From Yuukianura sp. NJ FZ-2021 (Eukaryota): a stretch of 64,000 nucleotides of DNA. The number at the start of each line of letters is the position of its first letter. Position 1 is the stretch's first letter. The translations under genes were made by a program, and so were the position numbers. The stretch is from contig CM102286.1 of NCBI GenBank assembly GCA_046563655.1, forward strand, positions 12,896,001 through 12,960,000, written 5' to 3'. The notes under the pieces are model-generated. The model did no database searches and was not told where the DNA came from. It saw only the letters and a list, made by a program, of their open reading frames with translations. Positions 6,601 through 60,723 of the stretch are shown in pieces.

Positions 6601-9600
6601 CTCAAGTATTCTTGGTGAGTGTTTTTGGAGTTACATGTGTACAAACACCGAAGCGTCAACACACTTTCCCGCTCCCGCGTCCAATTTTGAACCAAATTCC
6701 TTTTGAAATTGGAGCAAAACTTTAGTGTCTTTCTAGAAAAAGGAAAATCAAGTTGACTCATTGTGATGCAATTTGATTAACTGCGCTTCACAAACTTCAG
6801 AAGATGTCTAAAAAGGAATTCCTGATTTTCCCTAACTTCATTTCCTCTAATCACCACCAGCAGCAGCCTCCTTCATCTTCTGCAGCGCTTTTTCTTCACC
6901 GCTACTGCTCGCGCTTACTTCGCTGCCTTCGCTACTTTTGCTAATGGAACTCCAGTCTTCTTCTTCGTCTTTCTCAGCAATCAGTTCCATAAACTCATTA
7001 CGCGTAGTGGGTCAATAAAGTTTGAGCGGCGGTAGTAGCAGTGGTGGCATTTACTTTCGAAAAATTTCAAAGAAAAAATTCCACAATGAAAAGTTTTTGC
7101 AAAAATTTTAGTTTTGCGAAAGAAATTTCAAAAGAAAAGGAAAGAAGTGTTATTGGCCTAACGCAGGTTTTGGAAAGTTAAAAACGCCGCTGTTTTTGAA
7201 ACTCTCGAGGTCAACCAAGGTTTTTTTACTTTAATTTTCTTTAACAGGTTGGGTAATACCTCATGTTTTTTGATTTTGCAAAAAAAATTGTCTTTTCATT
7301 TCAGGGCATCGTGGTCAGGACAATACAGCCATTTTTTTAAATTTTGCATAGAAATTGGTAACGATTTTTTAGATTGGTACTAAATTGGTACTAATTTTGA
7401 TTTGGTTTTTTAGTCAACGAGCAAGGTAGTACCCAACCTGTTAAAGAAAATTAATTTTTCGTTGTCAAAGAACCTTGAGGTCAACTTTCATAAGTCTCTC
7501 GTGTCTGGAAGTTGTGCGTGAGTGCGTCTCCTTCGTCTGGCCATGCGCAGTCTGAAAATTAAGTCCAAGTTTTCCAGATCATGGATAAATTCAGTCATGA
7601 AATAGAAAGGACGAAACGTGCTGTCAGCAGACTGGTGCCAACCTCTGTCAGGAATGATGAAAGTGCCTGGCAAATCTCCAAAGCCAACTTTCACCCCGTG
7701 AGTCTCCGTGACTGTTTTTTCTACATTTTTGCTAATAATGCTATATGTGCTGCATCATCTGATGACAACTGCTTTCTACAAGAAAAAATTTCGCCGAAAT
7801 TTTTTGAAAAGAGTCGAATTTGAAAAATCCTTCTTCCACAATTCGCTTCCTACTTGGAATTTTTGTGTCCGAAAGTCGAGCTCGGTCGACAGTAGTTCAT
7901 TGATGTGCCAAAAAGTTAGGTCTGAGGGAACTGCTAAACCTCGGATTTAAGATGAACTCTCCGATGAAGAAAAAAAAGTTTCTTATACAGTTCCCAATCG
8001 GAGATTGACTCGATTCTGGTTGGCTGGCTGCTTGGAATTTGTTTCACTTCGAACTGGAAACTACGCCAAACGGAGATGGGTGGAAAGACGAAGATAAGCG
8101 TGAAAGTGTTTCCTCGTCAATGTCAACAGAAAAAAGTAGAGCGCAGTTTTCTCACTCAACCGCCAAAACTTCATTTCAATATCTTCACTTTCACTTTCAA
8201 TTTCCCCAGCCGCAAGAAATTATTACTTATGCATCGCTTCAAACATTTTCTTCAAGCATTGAAGCACTGAAAAAAGTCCCAGAAGAAAACAGATCAGGCA
8301 TGGAACAATTTTTTGGCATGAGCAAGTCAGTCAAATTTGTCACAAATCGAGCTAGCAGAGTAGCAGGTGCTGGTAGCTTATGACAATATAAGTCCCCCGG
8401 GAGAAAAAAAGTGAATGACTGCACTTTTTCAAAAAAAAAAAGTTTCAAATTTTTAAAAGTTGCCGCTTGTCTCGTGAGTCTAAACAGAATCGGTTTTTGA
8501 AAAAGCAGATCAGCGTCTTCAAAGAGCCTCTTTATCATCAGTGCCCAAACCAGATGTGCTGGATTTGTCTAATCTTTTGAAAGTGTTGAACTTTCTCTCC
8601 TCATGATGACAGTTTCCAACACGAAACTCTGTCGCTGATCTTTACCAAACCACATCATAAGACCATCACTTTCGTAACTTTTGGAGGGAGTAACTATGGA
8701 GCTCTCCGTGTTCCATTACAATACGTGCCAGGAAGTAAAGTGACACACACTATAGTGTGTGACTTATATTTCAAATTTAGTAGAGCTGAAAAAGCCACAG
8801 AGTAAAGTTATAAGTGGAGCTGAAATTATAATATCGACTTTTCCTGCCTTTTCGCCTTTCGCGCCACTCAACGAATTCCTTTGGATTTTGCCGGGAAGTC
8901 AGAGAAAGTTAGTTCTTCGCTACCAAAACTTTCTCAAATTCACTCAATATAGTAACTGCATGGTTTGGCACAGGGAATGCAAATGGAGGCCTCCAACCTC
9001 TGTTTACTTTAGGAATGGCGGTTTTTGTTGCCGCTTCGTTTTGAATTCAAAGCCTCTTTGACTACTAACCAGAAAAAATCTAAATCTAGGCACATACAGT
9101 ACCGTCACTTGAAAAAACTTACCGTCCGATTCCCGAGGCTTCTGACTCTGCAAACAAGGAATGCCGTTTTCCCAACCAGGGCCGTCACGTTCCTTGGAAT
9201 TGTGGCATCAAAGAAGGGCTCTCCAGGTGAAATTGGAGAAAACGGACCTGAATTGAGGGAAGTGAAGATGGCGTAGGTTGACTCTGTGGCTTCCAGTGTA
9301 GATTCGTTGGGAGAAACAGAATCTGAAATTTCAAAAAAATTATTGTACAGAAAAAATTTCAGTTTTTTAACTTTAAGACGAAAACAAACATTAGCTACCT
9401 AATTCATTTTAGAACTATTAGACAAATGAATGAAGAAGGGGAGGATGAGTAAAGAGCCTGGAGCGAAAAGTTTTAAAAACTTTCACTTTGAACAAAGTTT
9501 CCTGTTTTTGAACCTGTTTTAAAACTGAGTGCCAAAACTTTGAATTAGTTTTAACGGAAATAGCGGCGGATTGCACTTTAGTATACACAGAGCTGTATTA

Positions 9601-27600: not shown

Positions 27601-30600
27601 GGTATAAGAAAATGGGAGCCAAATTTAGGATTGGTGAGCCCTGAAAAGTTTTAGTTTTGACTTGTCAAGACACTTTTTAGATTCACAAAGATGAGAAAAG
27701 TTTTAGAGGGAAAGGGTCCTAGGTTTTTAGTAGTAAAAGAAGTCTAAGGGCCCCATGATCACTGGACCGAAAACGACAGAATAAGACTTGAGTACTACAG
27801 AGAAGAAAGCAGAGTTACTTGTAGTACTAGAGCAGCCAAATTTCACCAATCCCACAAGCGCCTACTTCAAAATGAGCCAAAAAGAAATGGAAAACGACTC
27901 ATTGTTCTGTTCTCTCTGCCTAAATTACTCGCAAGTTGCGAGTCGCAACTCACTTCAGTTTTTCAAAATTTCTAAAACGTCTTTATTCGAATTTTTTTTT
28001 GTATAAGATTTTCGCTGTTAAAGATATTCTTAACCTCATAAACTTTCCACTTTTTGGAAAAAAGTATTTGTCAAGCCTAGGTTTACCCATTAAGCGATTT
28101 TATCGAACGAGGTCTATTTTCTAATTTTTTGGATAAATTTTTCATCAGGATAAGAAAGTTGATAAAAAATTTTCTTTTACAACTTACTCAAATATTCTCA
28201 AGTTTTTCTTGTTTGTTTGAATTTTTTTTAGAAATCCAGGAAACCTTTGTATTTTGCTTACTTGAATGAAGTCACGATTTACGTCAACTTACTCCAAAAT
28301 AAAGTTCAAGCAGAAGGAAAAACGTCTTACCTGAAAATAGAAAAATAGAAATTTTTAGTATATTTTTAGACAAAACCTTGAAATGTATTTTTTTTGTACC
28401 ACTCCACTCTGACTCAATTTATGCCTGAACTACTTTTCTTTTGTCACGAAGTTTAAAACCCTTGGAGAAAGTCTCTTTTTACTAAATGCTTCTCCAACTA
28501 ACTGCCATTATGTTTTCATCTTGACATAAGACTGAAGATGGGCATTTAAATCAGGAACCAACGACAAAAGTTTTTTGAAGTCATATCCGCCTTTCCATAA
28601 GAACCTCAATTGAGATGAAGATGATGGCGTATTCCACTCCCAGTAGAAGAAGTTTTATTACTCTATTTAGAACCACTTGACATACTTTCCAGGCACGCAA
28701 AAAAATGAACAAAAAATCCCAGGCCTGGAAATTGTTTGAAGCAGAGCTGGGCAACGAGTCCAGACTTTGGCTGAACAGTGCCAGTACCTCAAGCTTATGA
28801 CTACTTTTCATTAGAAATGAAGATGGAGGTTCTTTCTTCTTTTTGGCAACTGGCCCACTTTCGACTTTCTTTTGTATCTTTACTAGATTTAGTCCAATTT
28901 CAAAAAAGAAAGCTATTTTCAAAAATTCAAAATTTGAGAATACCATTTCCTTTATGGTCCTGCGAAATTAATACTTCGGCTGAGGAAGTCCCCGCTAACA
29001 AAACTGCTACCACGAAAACCAATTTCATTTTTGCTGAACAAACTCACAGAATCAGATTTTTAAACACTCAATAGCAAAATTTTTCACACTGTGCAAAGTC
29101 ACGCAGTCAATGCAAAGATATTAAAACAAACTAAACTTTTTCTAATTCTAGAAAGTTTCTAGTTCTAATTTTGTCAAATCAAGTAGAGATATTAAATGGA
29201 GTTCCAGAAAATGCGAAGCTCATCCATTATCATAATTTCTTTCCAAGGTTAAGTTGAACACGTAATGAATGGCTCCCTGCAGCTTTTCTGATAATGCCAT
29301 TAAATGTTCATTTTTTAACAAGGTCAAAGGTCAAGGCTATCCTGACTTCCTGTGAAAACGAATTTGAAATAACAGCAAATAAAGAAGTTTTAAAGTTTCG
29401 CATTAGATCAAAAGAAAGGCAAATATTTTGGAAAGGTTTGCCTTTGCATTCGATTAGCTTTACACGAATTTTTTTAAATTCTTGAACTCATATTTTATCT
29501 ATTGCAACAAAAAATTATTAGACGCAGTTTGGCACGAATGGCAGCGTCAAGCTGCTCCACCAAGCATCTTTACTGTTGCCATTCCAAAAAAAAACTAGGT
29601 AAGGCTGCTAATGCTTTTTGTTCGTTAATTTATGTTCATTTGTGTTCTTAATGAAATGTGCTTCTGTGCAGTAAGGAGCCAAACGCTCCTAGTCTTCTCT
29701 AAAAATTTTACAGCCATAATAATTTTTTCTCTGATTTCTTTTTCCTCTATGGAATAATATCCATTCACCAAAAGAACTTTACTACTCTCCACTCTACTCG
29801 CTCGCAGCAGTTTCCTTTGAACATGAAAACAACAACAACAAGAACACACACACAAAAGTTAGAAAAGTGAAAAACTTTTTAGAAGAGAGAGCTAGAAGCG
29901 GAGTAGTAGGTTTCACGGCCTGCCAAACTCCCTGCCCCTGTTCAATATCTCAAGAACAAATGTTGTTTTATTTTCTTTCGTGCCGAAACTGAAAGTGAAA
30001 GTGGAGAAAGCATCATTCTTTGTCTTGCTCTACTTCCACCTCAGCCTCCTGCAACACTCGTGCTAAATACATTATCTATATTAATGACTTCCAATTGCCA
30101 GCTACTCCCTCCAGGAAACAGCACAGCCCCCTTCCACTAGAAGTGTCTTTTGTTTTATTTACAATATCCATCAATGCCGCCCATTTTCTTTACGACCGTC
30201 GAAGGATCGATGGACTTCTCCCGGTTCGCCAATTCAACAAACAAAAACAAACTTGGAAGTCTCTAGTTTAGGAGAAAACACTTTTTCAAAAAACGAGTCT
30301 CGGAGTATAAGTGTGTAGTAAGTGAGTGTTTTAAATTCTGTTCAAATCACCCGCCAAATTTAGGAGAGACCAATTTCTAATTCAGCACCAAACTTGTTAT
30401 TAATGGGCGTTGATCCGGTTCTCAAACTCTACAAAATAAAGTTTCTTCCTTCTGCTTATGTAATGCTTCGCGCCTCTAGCGCGAAAAGGCGCAATGTGAA
30501 AGTTAAAGCCTGTGTAGGGTTATGTTAGACGCATAAAAATACTAGCTTTAAAAATGGCGCGGAAGTGAAAGTTGGTTCATAACCTTATGAATAAGTATGA

Positions 30601-33600: not shown

Positions 33601-36600
33601 CTTCTGTCTACGTGATCCGCCTCGTTCAAATTGTTTCTTCTCTTGTTATGCTCCATGCATCTCAAGAATCTCAAATTTTTTATTCCTCCGAAAGATGCAT
33701 CATTACCGACGCACAGGATCTAGGAATTGAACTGTTAAAAAGTTCACATCAATTTTTCACAGGCTTCATTTTTATATTTTTTGTAAGGATTTCAGATTTT
33801 CATCCACAAATCTTTTTTTTATTCTTCCACGTAGCTGCTATATTGACTTTTTTTTAAAGCTGGAAAGAAGCAAAAAGTCTTTCCCTTAAATTGGAAAACG
33901 TGTTCGAAGCTATAAGCGCTCTACTTCAAAAACGCACAGTCCCTCGTCCCCCCTCCGGCTTTCTTAAGCTAATGGGAGCCTCATTTGAGAAGAAAGTTGC
34001 TCATTAAGAAGGGAATGAGGCCATAGACCTCTGCCGAAAGTGAAAGTTCCGAAACTTCCGAGAGGTGAAAGTCTGGATATCAAAAAGGGATATGAGTAAT
34101 TCAAATTTTCGCGCCAACCAGCCTGCCAACCTCCCGCTCCGTTTTTATGTGTTTGCCCGTGGCTTTTCGTTTTAAGTTGCATGATGAAAAGGCATTTATT
34201 GCTCATTTCCTCATTTCCTTTCAGATCGTCCCATTGAGTGACTCATAAAACACTCATTTTCTCCTACTCATTTACATTCACTTCTCCTGAAACAGTTTTA
34301 ACAGTTTGCCTTAAATGAACTTTCTCAAATTTCACTTTCTCCACAACTGTCTTCCGTGTTTTCAAAGTTAGCTTTTCCTACAAAATGAAAATGGCGAAGT
34401 GAAAGTATAAGTCAAGCAAAGAAGTAAATGTACAGGGTGATTCAAATGTAAAGCTATGTTTAAGAAAAATCGGAAAAAAATCTACCACTCTGTATTTGGT
34501 AAGGGTGTGGTAAATTCGTGAAATGTTTTTGCCAACTCCGAAACTTTTAGAACACGTTGTACATTTGCGCGTTCGTAAACATGCACCAGAATGAAACATT
34601 TTTAGTGACCAATAAACTTTCGTCGTCGTCGTCTCTCCTACACCTTGCCGACGACAGGCGCTCCAGTTCTTGTTGTCATAAAAATATAATGGGTCTTGTA
34701 AGGTCATGAAAGCTAATACTGTTGCTGTTCATGCTCGTTTCTTCAAGTCAGCTTCATGTTCGAATCTAAAAATCTAAGCTAATCATTCTCAAATATTCTA
34801 AAACGGAAGAAGCAGCGTTAGTGCCAGTTGTGTCTTTCCTTTTTATGCTGTCACGGGTCTTATAAAATATCCATTCCGTTGCACTTTTCATTCCGACCGA
34901 GAACTCTGCTTCTCCTTCATTTTATCCGCCAGGGAGGATAAACTTCCCTAGACTATTCGTATTATTTATGGCTTTAAATATTCAGGAGGTCCTTAATACC
35001 GAAGCGCTCCTTTCAAACTAAAAGGAAACAGCGACACTTTCCCCATTACTCATCCCTAGTTCTTAAGGCAGGATGGGATCCTAACCTAAACTTTTGGACT
35101 TGCTAAGTTTATAGTACCATCTTTTACTATTTGCATTTTCACCAAAAGCCATTTCGCACCAGATAGTTTGCCATACTGCGAAAAGGCCAAAGCATTTTAT
35201 GCTAAAATAACTTCAGACTCATTGCGCATACCCCCTTTAACCTAAAAGTCGTTTCAGAATATAGGTTCAACGAATGGCAAAATAACAAATTAAAAAAAAC
35301 GGTCCTAAATCGTAATCCGGAGTGCACGAAAGTACCGCAAGATGGCGCTGCATTTGCAAACGGCTATAACGAGACGAACAATGATTATTAACCATGAAAT
35401 GAAAACAGTTGACCTTTGACCCAAAACGAGGTCACTCGGGGTCATGTGATGTAGATGAGACGAACTAGTGAAAACAGATAACAGAAATATTGAGCTGTTT
35501 TCAAGATAATTGCCGCCAACGGCCGCCCAGACAGACAGACAGACAGACATGTTATATGCACAAAGTAGCTTTCGCTACTTAATAGCCCACGCACCCAACA
35601 GAGTGAAAATAGCATAACAAAACCTAACTTGAACAAGGACATAGGACCCTAGGTGAAAGTCTTGGAAGAATAGATTGGCGCAGTTTTCTAGTTGAACAGT
35701 CACCGGAGCTTAATCATCCATACATTAAGGTGGAACTAACCTTAACGGCTCTCATAGCCATTCTTTTCTGAACAAAGTTCGGAGGAACAAAGCTTTAGTT
35801 GAGGAGACTATGTGAGGGTAGGCCCATTTACCAGGACTAATCTAGGCCTTCTATCACCTCTTCCTTACTTCAGTCATCAATCATAATGAGAATTGGGAGG
35901 TAGGATTTGGGAAGATGGGAGCCACTTTGGAACCTGAGACATAACCGTCTTTAGGCTAACTGAGGACTAAGCTTTCCTCTGGAAACGAAGATTCTAGCGG
36001 CAGAAGTGGCATGGTTAGGTTAGTCATAAAGAGAAGGGGATATTTCCCCTTTTCACCTCATGAACTGGTGAGAGTGTGGGAAGAAAAGGAGGCTCGGAGG
36101 AGAAAGTAGTGGTGAAAGTAATAGTAATATCCCAGAACTATTTTCCAGACGAAGGGAGACAAGTAAGGGCCAAAGTCATTCTGCCTCTTCTCCTCATCTT
36201 CTGGGATCGAACAAAGTAAAAGTAAGTGGAGGAAGAAGGTTTAAATGTGATCCTAGTTAACTAGATAGTATCAGTCCCACATCACTTCAAATCCCTAAAA
36301 CTTAAGGAGACACGTCGGAGGGATTGCAAAACCCAAAATGCCACTTTCTTTTCAAAGGTGTAGAACACTCCCGCAATGACTTTCAAACTCTAGCAAAAGG
36401 AATTCAGCGGAAATTGGAAAAAGAACAGAAAAGAAAACCGAATTCCACGAAAGGTGGAAACATATCTAAGATCTACTCTCAGTAAAATTGTCAACAACTA
36501 AATGGTAAACTACAACGTAGGCAACAGATAACAACTAACCTAACACAATATCTAAAATTTGAAAATTTTGAAAAACGCGAATGTCATGTTGTTTTTGTTT

Positions 36601-57600: not shown

Positions 57601-60291
57601 TTGAGCCATCTCTGCTGCTTTCTCTTTTACAATGGTCAAATATCTACTGGAAGGAATAGAGAATACAGGGAATCTTGAAGTTTTTCTTCTCCTTTGCAGC
57701 TTTTCCATTGAACTAAATTTAATAAGAAACCTAGACAGAATACAGAGTTGAAGTAATCCTAAGTTCTAAGCCAAAGAAGTGCGTAGAAGAAAGTTTTCTT
57801 TTTTGCCAACATCGACCAGCTGAGACTGTTACAGCATGAGCTGGTTATGTGATTCGCCGTGGTTGATTATAACAGTGTCCTAGAAATCCTGCTTTCACTG
57901 ATTGCAATTGTTGCAAAAAAAATAGCTTTTTTTTTCACAAAATTGGTTTCTGTTTTTGGCGACTTGGAAAATCGGAATTCTAAGAGCATCTTCTGCCGTT
58001 TCTTTTGAAAAAAAGCTTCTCAGTTTCTCAATTTTTGTTTTCTTTTTTCTAAGAATGAACTTTTTTTGAAAAAAAAAATTAGAGTTTTTGTTCTAAACAT
58101 GAACTTTTCGTGGAAAAGCGAGCGAAAAACGAACTGCAGAAGGTTTGGTTTTGTGGGAGGATGAGCAGGTAACCATTACACTTACGAGGGATGTGAACGG
58201 AAAAGCGTCAATTTTCTCCAAGATTGGTCAAGGAAGAGAAAGCGGGAAAATTAGACCAAAGTAAGTACTCTATTTATTTGAGAAGTTTTCGGGATTGTGT
58301 TCGGCCCCACCCTAAGGTAACAAAGTGGTGGTGGGTCCACTACAAAAACGAACAATATGGTGGGAACTCTAACAAGTGTTGTATGTTGCGAGTTATACTG
58401 AACGTTCCTCCCCTCGTCCTTATTTTATTGCTTCTTACTACACTTTTTCCTTTCCTGGTTAAAATTTTTGTACTTTTTGTGTAAAAAATACATGTGTGTA
58501 CTACGTAAATTGTAAAGGAGAGAAAACGCGTAAAGGAGAAAATATTCTGTTCTATTTGCTTCTTGCTGGATGAAACGGAAATGCTATTTACTCCAATCAA
58601 TCCCCAGAGAGCTGCAGTACATACTTTCTTCTGTGCTTTCTCCGGAACCGTATCCGAATCCTGGATGCTTTCATTTTTCTTGAGAAAAGGAGAAAATAGA
58701 ATAGTATACGCCATAGACTGGTAAAAATTCAATGCAAATCATTGTGTCAGTATCAAAAGTTGTTTTAAGGAAGCTTTTCTTTCCTTTTCTCCAGTGGTGA
58801 AGGATTTGGCGCAACTTTTTCTTGCCTCCCAACTTTCTCCGCCGTTTGGTTTGCTATAACATTCAAAGACTTCCTGATTTTCTGCCTCTTTTTAGGATAA
58901 TATCATTTCCATGAAATCCTGTACCAAATATTCTGTATCTTCTTTTACAGAATAAAATTTTCAAAAAATGAAAACTTTTTGGCTCTTATTTCCTTTTACG
59001 TGAGTTTACACACAGGAAAGCAGCATGGCTTCTACCGCACCGGTAAACCTCTTTTCTAAATTTTCAAAAGCCTTTCATTTTCTCCTTTCTAAAATTTTCA
59101 ACAACTTTTTGTGAACCGTAGAAAGTGCAAGTCTTATATACTTCTGCCAAGGATTTTGAAGCGTGCCGAAGAAAAGGCTTGGTATTTTGTAATTTTCCAA
59201 TATACCTTTATCATCTAAAAAAAAAGTTTGAACAGAAATTTTCAACAAGAAAAATCGAGGTTTCAGAAACATAGACGATGCGTGTTGCCAAATAGTAATC
59301 GTTCACCGCTACAGAAAACTTTCAGTCCAGTTCAGCTACAGTGAAGAAAAATTCGGTTTTTTTTTATTTAAGTTATTTACGGTAGGAATTGGAAGGAAAA
59401 AATGAAGGAATTTCAAACAATAAAAAAATTTATGCAGTGGTATGCATAATATGCCTTCCGGCCTAACGTAACCCTAAACCTTCCAACTTTCACCTGAATT
59501 TGTACACATTCTTAATAGTGCATAGAGTAGGCACAATTTAGTTTTTGTTTTTTGAAAATAATAGCATCGATGTGATATCAAGATTGGCACAAAACATGCT
59601 TCTGGGCAACACACACTACTACTAGTGTGGTGAAGTGTCATTTCTGCAGCAATTTCCGTCACTTATAATGCTCCCGTATCTGAACTCCTTTCAAGTGTAT
59701 TCATAATTTAGATAAATGAATAGCACGAAATGGTCATTTAACTTGGCAAAAGTGCAATCAGCTTTTGACTAAATTGAGGCTACAAGTGCCTAAAGATTTC
59801 TATCGCTCAATTTACCAATACTTTTTAGAAATGTAAACTTTTGATACCATTTTTCTCCTAATCCAGCCCATAAATTAAATTTGAGGTAGAAAAAACAGAC
59901 GCTTCAGAAAAACTTTTGTCGTGGTTATGCTCTTAGCAGGAGGTCGTCCATCCCATTGTCATGGAAACTCTAATGCTTTCAAATTGATCCTGATCACGTT
60001 TTGTTCTTATTCTGGCTGAAGGTGACCTTTGACCTCCCAGAATGCTTTACCGTCGACAGTGGGATGGTTCAAATGCCAAAAAAAGTTCTGGCGATGACAT
60101 TTTTTAAGCACAGGGAGATGACAAGGCTGAGTGTCACGAGCGGAAGTCAAAGATCAAAAATCTGCGTCCATTGTCTTACCTGTTGGTGTCCACAGAGACA
60201 AAGATGAGATCAGAAGGAAGATCAGAAAAGGCTCAGATGTCATTCGAAGTAGGAAAGGGCGTCGACAGCTCACAAATTTGAAAACCTTCAT
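542..60291 (-). CDS. dpr6: Dpr-family Ig-superfamily neuronal surface protein (dpr6/dpr10-like), 5' part; join(60180..60291, 9123..9322, 758..901, 542..608); 3' exons lie beyond the left edge
   Basis: Spliced translation: MKVFKFVSCRRPFLLRMTSEPFLIFLLISSLSLWTPT-D-SVSPNESTLEATESTYAIFTSLNSGPFSPISPGEPFFDATIPRNVTALVGKTAFLVCRVRSLGNRT-VSWVRHRDIHILTVGTYTYTSDQRFQANHQRATEEWTLQIKYTQKRDA-GIYECQISTQPHRSFYVNLNVV. Ig hallmarks are present (C..W..DxGxYEC), plus the Dpr signature VSWxRHRDIHILTVGxYTYTSDQRF. All introns are GT-AG with matching phases (1,0,0,1). Family is secure; the dpr6 paralogue call is from recalled similarity, not a search. Confidence 0.9.
758..901 (-). CDS. dpr6: dpr exon: core of Ig1 (VSWVRHRDIHILTVGTYTYTSDQRF...KRDA)
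   Basis: Acceptor TAG at 904-902 and donor GTAAGT at 757-752; 144 nt, phase 0/0. Matches the N-terminal part of ORF 659..901, whose tail is intron read-through. Confidence 0.97.
970..2540. repeat. Old TGTGCA/TGCACA-rich element, interrupted by younger repeat fragments
   Basis: TGTGCA/TGCACA motifs are dense at 970-1400 and 2280-2540, and the ends are loosely inverted (CTGCTTGCC... / ...CCAGCAGG). The CCGGAT-rich and AACCGGTT-rich blocks lie between. Confidence 0.35.
1555..2019. mobile_element. Truncated MITE-like element rich in CCGGATTT/AATCCGG motifs
   Basis: Clusters of (AAT)CCGGATTT at 1555-1660 and 1930-1995. The right end reads TAGGGGTGGAAATCC on the minus strand, resembling the family B terminus. 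The left terminus was not found. Confidence 0.5.
7216..7477. mobile_element. MITE family A, copy 1 (non-autonomous DNA transposon, hAT- or P-like)
   Basis: Ends CAAGGTT...AACCTTG; perfect 25-bp inverted repeat (7231-7255 vs 7430-7454); perfect 8-bp target duplication AGGTCAAC (7208-7215 and 7478-7485). Confidence 0.92.
9123..9322 (-). CDS. dpr6: dpr exon: S/T/P-rich linker and start of Ig1 (EPFFDATIPRNVTALVGKTAFLVCRVRSLGNRT)
   Basis: Acceptor tttCAG at 9325-9323 and donor GTAAGT at 9122-9117; 200 nt, phase 1 in and phase 0 out, open throughout. Has the Dpr-type PxFD..P.NVTALVGKTA.L.CRV motif. Confidence 0.95.
20718..20994. mobile_element. MITE family A, copy 2
   Basis: Same CAAGG...CCTTG ends and internal sequence (GGTTGGGTAATACCTCATG, CATTTCAGGGCA, TACCCAACCTG). 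Flanked by GGTTTTAC on both sides, with one extra C on the left. Confidence 0.9.
28325..28360 (-). promoter_or_regulatory. Recursive splice site (ratchet point), junction 28331|28330
   Basis: Minus strand reads TACTAAAAATTTCTATTTTTCTATTTTCAG|GTAAGACG: a branch-like CTAA, a long pyrimidine tract, then CAG directly abutting a consensus donor. It is on the dpr sense strand and inside the longest intron. Confidence 0.75.
28581..28882 (-). CDS. Possible exon 2 of a nested 128-aa protein of unknown family (may be a pseudogene)
   Basis: A 61-nt GT..AG intron (28883-28943) joins the signal-peptide exon in frame to ORF 28581..28946 (VKIQKKVESGPVAKKKKEPP...LLLLGVEYAIIFISIEVLMERRI*). No homology recognised. 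Confidence 0.35.
28944..29028 (-). CDS. Unannotated signal-peptide exon (MKLVFVVAVLLAGTSSAEVLISQDHKGN): alternative dpr first exon or exon 1 of a nested gene
   Basis: Start context CAGCAAAAATGAAA; classical n/h/c signal peptide ending SSA; 85 nt ending in phase 1 at ATG|GTATTC, a modest donor. Confidence 0.55.
35292..35583 (-). mobile_element. Helentron-associated (HINE/DINE-1-like) non-autonomous element
   Basis: Terminal hairpin AAGTAGC-TTTC-GCTACTT (35563-35580), adjacent (CAGA)5 microsatellite (35528-35547), a related subterminal motif AGTGCACGAAAG near the other end, and a T-run terminus on the minus strand. This layout matches the known DINE-1/HINE architecture. Confidence 0.6.
51892..52169. 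mobile_element. MITE family A, copy 3
   Basis: CAAGG...GGAACCTTG ends and an interior colinear with copies 1 and 2; decayed target duplication CTAGGACG / CTAGGGATG. Confidence 0.88.
60180..60291 (-). CDS. dpr6: Probable first coding exon of dpr (signal peptide)
   Basis: ATG at 60291 (gaaaATG) with a second in-frame ATG at 60243. Basic N-region followed by hydrophobic FLIFLLISSLSLW. Ends at a strong donor CAG|GTAAGA in phase 1, matching the phase-1 acceptor at 9322 (G+AT = Asp). The link across 50.9 kb is inferred. Confidence 0.72.
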
Positions 60292-60352: not shown

Positions 60353-60723
60353 CTGGAAATTTGAAAGGCTTGACCTCATTTTTCTTCCGGGGGCTTGCAG
60401 ACGAAAAAGGAAAGCCCAACGGATTGTATTACGGTGCCTAATCGGTTAGTTCCGGAAAGTACCGAGAAATCCCGACAGTTGATGCTGAACTGATCGTCAG
60501 ATGCTTGAATTTGGATCAATAGATACTTGGTCAATGTCAAAGACAGGATCACTTCTTCGTTTTCTTAAAAAAAAGAAGAAAAGTTTTGTTCAAATAACAG
60601 AAAAGAGGGAAAGTTTAACATTTTTTCTTATTTTATTGTGTCAACTTTTATATAAATTTTCCTAAACTTTTTTTTTTGGTTTTTCAAACGTACTTTCTCC
60701 CTCGTGTCCCTTGGTTCACTTAC
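60353..60723 (-). other. Candidate 5'UTR intron of dpr (371 nt)
   Basis: Consensus donor GAG|GTAAGT (exon end 60724) and acceptor tttcaaatttcCAG at 60355-60353, 61 nt before the ATG. The upstream sequence is A-rich on the minus strand, as is common in arthropod 5'UTRs. Confidence 0.4.

Follow-up and report, generated by a model that had tools for sequence, protein, structure and literature searches.

A 64,000-nucleotide (nt) stretch of the genome of the springtail Yuukianura sp. NJ FZ-2021 (assembly GCA_046563655.1, contig CM102286.1, positions 12,896,001 to 12,960,000; hereafter the window) carries exons of a dpr gene that, by sequence similarity, is a member of the Dpr6/10 group and a nerve-wiring gene. 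A short open reading frame (ORF) resembling a secretory signal peptide lies within the first intron of this gene, and an earlier reading of the DNA, here called the original prediction, had proposed that an internal promoter uses it as a second, alternative leader exon. The evidence as a whole points elsewhere: the 28-codon frame probably arose by chance in T-rich DNA of an intron of this Dpr6/10-like gene. The frame would be transcribed within the first intron of about 51 kilobases (kb; 60179-9323) and then removed with that intron, probably in two steps by way of a ratchet-like site at 28331, and would thus be neither an exon nor a translation start.

That the frame belongs to a real exon feeding dpr exon 2 is unlikely, although well above negligible, and the probability given to this is split evenly between an exon with its own promoter and an internal exon. 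These odds stand where they do because a prior for a real exon, taken as roughly 0.1-0.2, was weighed with an outlier ORF and its start context, which speak for an exon, with the random-grade donor, which speaks against it, and with the missing promoter motifs, which speak mildly against it. Positions throughout are those of the window, features lie on the minus strand unless the plus strand is named, and a slash in a motif marks the splice junction.

Sequence signals at the candidate frame

The sequence CAAAAATG opens a 28-codon ORF that translates as MKLVFVVAVLLAGTSSAEVLISQDHKGN (29028-28945). The candidate coding segment (28944-29028) thus runs from the ATG at 29028-29026 through these codons to a single G at 28944, after which comes GTATTC at 28943-28938; an exon cut here would have a phase-1 end. 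Immediately before the ATG stands CAAAA (29029-29033), and an in-frame TGA stop lies farther upstream (29044-29046). If the frame is read through the GT, it reaches a stop after GILKF. Because only 38 codons separate one stop from the next, the frame is missing from the ORF list, which had a threshold of 70 amino acids. On all of these points, namely coordinates, start context, peptide, phase-1 end at a GT and absence from the ORF track for shortness, the original prediction was accurate.

The putative donor is where that account fails. GTATTC (28938-28943, in the context ATG/GTATTC) matches 3/7 consensus positions when scored over the 7 variable positions of MAG/GTRAGT, a consensus that is fly-based and so approximate for a springtail. 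The prediction had called this donor moderate, but 38.9% of the 3313 GTs on the minus strand match the consensus as well or better. The donor is therefore random-grade, and the GT gives essentially no evidence for an exon. All six reference donors (those of the first, distal leader, exons 2, 3 and 4, the ratchet-like site and a possible cryptic exon) contain GTAAG and have scores of 4-6, and in sequence the candidate donor context is unlike the real donors of the gene. By consensus scoring, no functional 5' splice site is recognized at the end of the candidate exon.

Core-promoter motifs provide little encouragement. Neither the TCAKTY initiator nor the TATAWAW box, both of them Drosophila-derived motifs, occurs in the roughly 570 nt upstream (29029-29600), and TCAKTY has a background frequency of 2.0 per kb on the minus strand. 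The sole promoter-like reading pairs TTTAAAAA at 29064 with TCAGC at 29036, 28 nt farther on, and would leave a leader of only about 7 nt. A promoter is still compatible with the absence of such motifs, which weighs mildly against the exon.

Base composition was also examined. The candidate has a GC content of 0.417 and a third-position GC content of 0.429, compared with 0.43-0.51 in known exons, and its two flanks are at 0.305 and 0.365. Its position-specific composition score is -0.03, whereas the four known exons range from +0.09 to +0.27. Of 400 open 28-codon ATG frames, 42.5% score as high, but the score has low power given its approximately 175 training codons. Separately, the interval 28581-29074 is open on both strands (128 amino acids on the minus strand at 28581-28967 and 99 amino acids on the plus strand at 28775-29074), and a local rise in GC content to 0.425 at 28600-28799 coincides with it.

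Eukaryotic secretory signal peptides are built from n-, h- and c-regions and follow the -3/-1 rule. In a rule-based scan, which required a basic residue, a run of 10 residues with 8 or more hydrophobic and none charged, and small residues at -3 and -1, the candidate passed with the segmentation MK / LVFVVAVLLAG / TSSA, followed by E. Its likeness to genuine signal peptides includes a positive n-region (K2), a hydrophobic core of 10-11 residues within the usual h-region range of about 7-15, and S and A at -3 and -1 with E after them. However, the candidate shares this pass with two further minus-strand ORFs of the intron. The three ATG ORFs that satisfy the rule in the window, all on the minus strand, begin at 35642 (MSLFKLGFVMLFSLCWVRG...), 29028 (the candidate) and 21131 (MSSYKFLLGFLYILVLLSIA...). 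The first and last of these share the intron and strand of the candidate, have poor start contexts and lack a good donor, and they show how readily signal-like frames arise in this intron.

In Markov-simulated versions of the window (orders 1 and 3, with 150 simulations per order), 1.0-1.2 rule-passing ORFs were found per 128 kb. When hydrophobicity was scored as KD10, 200 order-3 copies gave an expectation of 1.74 ORFs with KD10 >= 3.0 on the sense strand. At a looser cut of KD10 >= 2.3, hydrophobic ATG ORFs in the window itself number 32 for the minus strand and 21 for the plus strand; among them, a GTRAG donor is found only at the distal leader of the dpr gene.

Other searches returned nothing of note in this region. 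A back-translated leader pattern had 0 matches in metagenome contigs, a search of the whole window against Rfam gave 0 matches, and no tandem repeats were found at 27-31 kb. A self-BLAST of 28300-29500 against the window yielded only matches of 29 nt or less. Self-BLAST revealed no similarity between the two leaders, and their origin by exon duplication was therefore rejected. Descent of the region from a repeat or a transposon was rejected as well, on the basis of the self-BLAST and the protein search.

Exons of the host gene and a ratchet-like site in its first intron

Four exons of the host gene were recognized. The distal leader exon (60180-60291, with its ATG at 60291) encodes MKVFKFVSCRRPFLLRMTSEPFLIFLLISSLSLWTPT plus one G and ends in phase 1 at the donor CAG/GTAAGA. 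Exon 2 (9123-9322) encodes the linker and the first half of the Ig1 domain, is entered in phase 1 through a TTTCAG acceptor and has the donor ACG/GTAAGT. Exon 3 (758-901), identified by its match to Dpr6, encodes the Ig1 core (VSWVRHRDIHILTVG...), and exon 4 (542-608) encodes GIYECQISTQPHRSFYVNLNVV. Several features surround the start of the distal leader: a perfect TCAGTT initiator, with A+1 at 60491, about 200 nt upstream of the ATG; a short upstream ORF from 60379 in the presumed 5' untranslated region; and a second in-frame ATG at 60243 (MTSEPFLIFLL...).

The Ig1 domain is of the Dpr type. Among PDB sequences, exon 3 matched Drosophila Dpr6 (5eo9, E = 1e-22) and Dpr10 (6nrq, 6e-20), and Dprs made up 6/8 of the matched sequences. 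In a large protein collection, 523/524 candidates matched exon 3 at E <= 0.001, and among the 120 matches listed the named ones are arthropod, most of them with precomputed Ig-type Pfam domains. The best two matches listed, at 90% identity, are a JGI protein and a partial model from the springtail Orchesella cincta; a model from the springtail Allacma fusca has 86% identity, and no match is listed at 100%. Two JGI-derived matches to exon 3, P0001 and P0003, suggest that springtail DNA occurs among the metagenome sequences. For exon 4, the models of Orchesella cincta and Allacma fusca have exactly the peptide GIYECQISTQPHRSFYVNLNVV; both models begin at exon 3 without 5' exons or leaders. By these matches the DNA is probably that of a collembolan-like arthropod rather than a fly, and its own dpr gene is probably absent from the protein collection. 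For exon 2, a search against longer proteins produced 41 candidates, none of which scored, and Pfam assigned 0 families to 5 exon and ORF pieces, as expected for half-domains.

Downstream of the candidate, 613 nt from 28944, the original prediction had correctly placed a ratchet-like acceptor/donor, TTTCTATTTTTCTATTTTCAG/GTAAGA (28325-28350), whose AG ends at 28331 in the form TTTTCAG/GTAAGA. With 17/20 pyrimidines, it is the nearest strong acceptor downstream of the candidate, and it combines a juxtaposed YAG/GTRAGT, a pyrimidine tract and TT at -5/-6. The last of these features is reported for 196 of 197 Drosophila ratchet points by Duff et al. (preprint 10.1101/006163). The minus strand carries six AG/GTRAG sites, of which 28331 is the only one preceded by 15/20 pyrimidines or more. 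The plus strand has four such sites, one of which, at 1777, is as good as 28331, and because this equal motif lies on the antisense strand, the motif alone is not significant. The plus-strand site reads GCTTTTCAG/GTAAGC with 15/20 pyrimidines (1751-1787), lies antisense within the dpr exon 2-3 intron, and serves as a chance control, or is possibly the exon edge of an antisense transcript.

Next to the ratchet-like site begins what may be a cryptic recursive exon, 38 nt long (28330-28293; with its donor GGA/GTAAGT, 28287-28330) and out of frame. Short, out-of-frame cryptic recursive exons are described for Drosophila by Joseph and Lai (PMC8605326). The parallels with these fly systems are twofold: an acceptor juxtaposed to GTAAGA within a long intron with TT at -5/-6, as at zero-nucleotide ratchet points, and a short out-of-frame exon with a GTAAGT donor 38 nt downstream, as in cryptic recursive exons. 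The differences are that the host is not a fly, that the site is identified by motif, and that the likeness concerns 28331 and not the candidate exon. A second donor, CAA/GTAAGC, is located 69 nt past 28331, and its frame runs into a TGA. The exact 21-mer of the ratchet-like site was found in metagenomes at 4 loci, which are seed-only matches and hence due to chance. Since 28331 is the first strong acceptor for whichever upstream exon is used, convergence of different leaders on this site would be mechanically reasonable.

Weighing a possible genuine exon

A variety of observations speak against a fortuitous origin for the frame and must be accounted for. With a KD10 of 3.46, the candidate ranks first among the 610 ATG ORFs that have 20 or more codons; none of the others combines KD10 >= 3.0 with a [CA]AA[AC] start context. 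This context occurs at 66 of the 918 minus-strand ATGs, and AAAA precedes 4.0% of them. No ATG is present in the 195 nt upstream, and only 6.0% of gaps between ATGs are at least 190 nt long. In the 200 order-3 copies, the expected number of hydrophobic ORFs falls to 0.135 when the start context is added and to 0.075 when a phase-1 GT is required too; with an ATG-free 190 nt as a further condition it is 0.01. Likewise, rule-passing ORFs with a phase-1 G/GTR donor are expected at 0.05-0.07 per 128 kb in the rule-based simulations.

The surroundings of the frame add to these points. The final G of the candidate together with the AT of exon 2 (AT/TCT at 9322) forms GAT, which encodes D and gives the join ...DHKGN-D-SVSPNE. 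The candidate is thereby compatible in reading frame with the shared downstream dpr exon and enters it in phase 1, exactly as exon 2 requires, which bears out the fit that had been predicted. Also, a credible acceptor, TTTGTTCAG/ (29034-29055, AG ending 29034), ends 5 nt upstream of the ATG, and such an acceptor lies within 12 nt of only 52 of the 918 ATGs. It has 13/20 pyrimidines, where the acceptors of exons 2 and 3 have 12 and 13, and a CTGAT motif at 29055-29051, 18 nt upstream, that by visual inspection resembles a branch site. In the opposite direction, an exhaustive HMMER search with the 30-residue leader peptide against 1.84 billion representatives found 0 proteins, but such negative searches are weak given a short peptide, clustering at 50% identity and gene models of the closest relatives that lack the N-terminal exon.

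Relatives of the gene provide a further argument of this kind. A survey of 32 proteins, chosen by name from the 120 matches listed, covered species with several gene models. Differing N-termini were found in 4 of the 12 insect species with at least two models, and clustering at 90% identity can conceal leader-only isoforms in such a survey. Coccinella models have either a hydrophobic leader or a three-residue MHQ start, whereas the shorter models of Brassicogethes and Aethina begin within the exon-2-like region; each of these three species thus has a model that lacks a start resembling a signal peptide. In Atheta coriaria, a single gene annotated as 'protein sidekick-like' (X6 and X2; P0059 and P0062) has two related, signal-peptide-like leaders. 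The parallel with the arrangement proposed for the springtail is close: each gene would have two alternative first coding exons, each leader resembling a signal peptide and joined to a common exon for the linker and half of Ig1. However, the Atheta leaders are mutually homologous (MNASIFTRILGLCAHLLFSG versus MHTSILSRILGLYAQILISG), whereas the two leaders in the window are unrelated, and the isoforms of all four insects are database gene models, whereas the candidate is a prediction from the DNA. Alternative 5' ends are thus common in Dpr6/10-like genes, and paired signal-peptide leaders are rare but do occur.

In the other 8 of the 12 species, the models differ only by a cassette that follows Ig1 or in their C-termini. 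What chiefly distinguishes isoforms throughout the insect orders is an optional acidic cassette of 25-50 residues located after the ...NLNVV end of Ig1 and before VPTA..., as in the pairs P0009/P0011, P0016/P0021, P0019/P0029, P0105/P0108 and P0008/P0012.

As an ORF that resembles a signal peptide and has a good start context, the candidate is a genuine outlier, and to this extent the predicted signal-peptide exon has a basis in the DNA. That the whole candidate is more than chance is only borderline. The outlier criteria were picked after the candidate was seen, and the nominal p of approximately 0.01-0.1 holds for a single window, whereas the scan was very large.

One way in which the exon could be real is the one originally envisaged. 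An internal promoter at about 29.05-29.3 kb would produce a first exon ending at 28944 and an alternative Dpr leader cleaved after SSA; the donor would be joined to the acceptor at 28331, regenerating ATG/GTAAGA, and re-splicing to exon 2 at 9322 would follow. The textbook shape of the peptide (K2, the core LVFVVAVLLA, and S-S-A at -3 to -1), its unrivaled hydrophobicity, the AAAA start context with its ATG-free upstream sequence, the phase-1 match, and a ratchet-like site as the nearest strong downstream acceptor all suit this scheme, as do the two signal-peptide leaders annotated on one gene of Atheta coriaria. Set against these are the random-grade donor, the lack of an initiator or TATA box in 570 nt, where the TTTAAAAA and TCAGC reading leaves a leader of some 7 nt, and a composition that is not coding-like. 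In addition, the two leaders of the springtail gene are dissimilar, whereas those of Atheta are duplicated. Taken together, these considerations leave such a promoter improbable.

The acceptor ending at 29034 suggests another route, to which a similarly low probability is assigned. It would define an internal exon of 90 nt (29033-28944) that preserves the frame, is in phase 1 on both sides and leaves the in-frame stop at 29046-29044 outside. In one version, a promoter farther upstream supplies an untranslated first exon that is spliced to this one, and translation starts at the ATG at 29028; in another, the exon is a cassette that lies between the distal leader and exon 2, keeps the frame and adds AKMKLVFVVAVLLAGTSSAEVLISQDHKGN. 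A local promoter becomes unnecessary, and the acceptor is on par with those of exons 2 and 3, with CTGAT 18 nt upstream and an ATG closer than is usual. However, this exon would share the random-grade donor, the one-in-three match in frame and the acceptor could both be chance, and no non-coding exon was recognized farther upstream. The cassette version would also yield an odd product, in which the original signal peptide is followed by another hydrophobic segment. Given a real exon, splicing into it at the 29034 acceptor is about as likely as a promoter directly upstream.

A separate gene nested in the dpr intron was considered as well and is very unlikely. In this scheme, the signal-peptide exon would be followed by a 61-nt intron (GTATTC...CTAG, 28883-28943) and a second exon (28581-28882) of 100 codons plus a stop at 28583-28581, part of the 128-amino-acid ORF at 28581-28967, to give a secreted or membrane protein of about 129 amino acids. 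The attraction is that removal of this short intron restores a 100-codon open frame, and that AlphaFold2 predicts a confident long helix for the C-terminal half, with a predicted local distance difference test score of 85-98 over residues 51-100. However, the single helix has a predicted template modeling score of 0.40, typical of hydrophobic random sequence, and about a dozen ORFs in the window are equally long by chance. The 28883 acceptor is weak (10/20 pyrimidines), and the composition of the ORF ranks 49 among 169 ORFs of at least 70 amino acids, most of which are presumably non-coding. Pfam gave no match for the ORF, a search of 5.8 billion proteins returned 1 candidate and 0 hits, and no AATAAA was seen by eye in the approximately 380 nt read after the stop.

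The most elaborate reading has equally slim prospects. Two unrelated leaders located 31 kb apart in a non-dipteran arthropod would share one ratchet point and thereby form a promoter-dependent on/off switch similar to that proposed for long vertebrate genes, in which the 38-nt frame-shifting exon would be skipped after the distal leader and partly included after the proximal one. A review (PMC5126111) offers precedents: it summarizes the 'binary switch' model that Sibley et al. (2015) put forward for recursive splice sites in vertebrates, and it refers to Parra et al. (2008) for intrasplicing in protein 4.1R. As outlined there, the upstream exon in the binary switch sets the strength of the regenerated donor and hence skipping of the recursive exon. 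By analogy, the distal leader would regenerate CAG/GTAAGA and the candidate ATG/GTAAGA, two donors of unequal strength, although in the window this is a deduction from sequence only. Possibly, a constitutively recognized recursive exon would also help to activate a weak promoter 700 nt upstream.

Implications for Dpr6/10-like genes

The preferred explanation, a fortuitous frame discarded with the intron, can be compared with what a real leader would have meant. If true, the alternative would add one promoter and one signal peptide to a Dpr6/10-like gene with a role in synaptic recognition. Such a leader would be ordinary, because alternative 5' ends are already annotated in insect Dpr6/10-like genes, and because cleavage removes the signal peptide whichever leader is used, the change in the mature protein would be limited to about 11 residues at its N-terminus. 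Wider interest is therefore limited to the interplay between a proximal leader and the ratchet-like site, and to the recursive-splice architecture. As a fortuitous frame, the candidate illustrates how readily signal-peptide-like ORFs originate in T-rich introns. Should the site at 28331 work in the springtail, it would provide a hint that a recursive-splice architecture exists outside flies and vertebrates.

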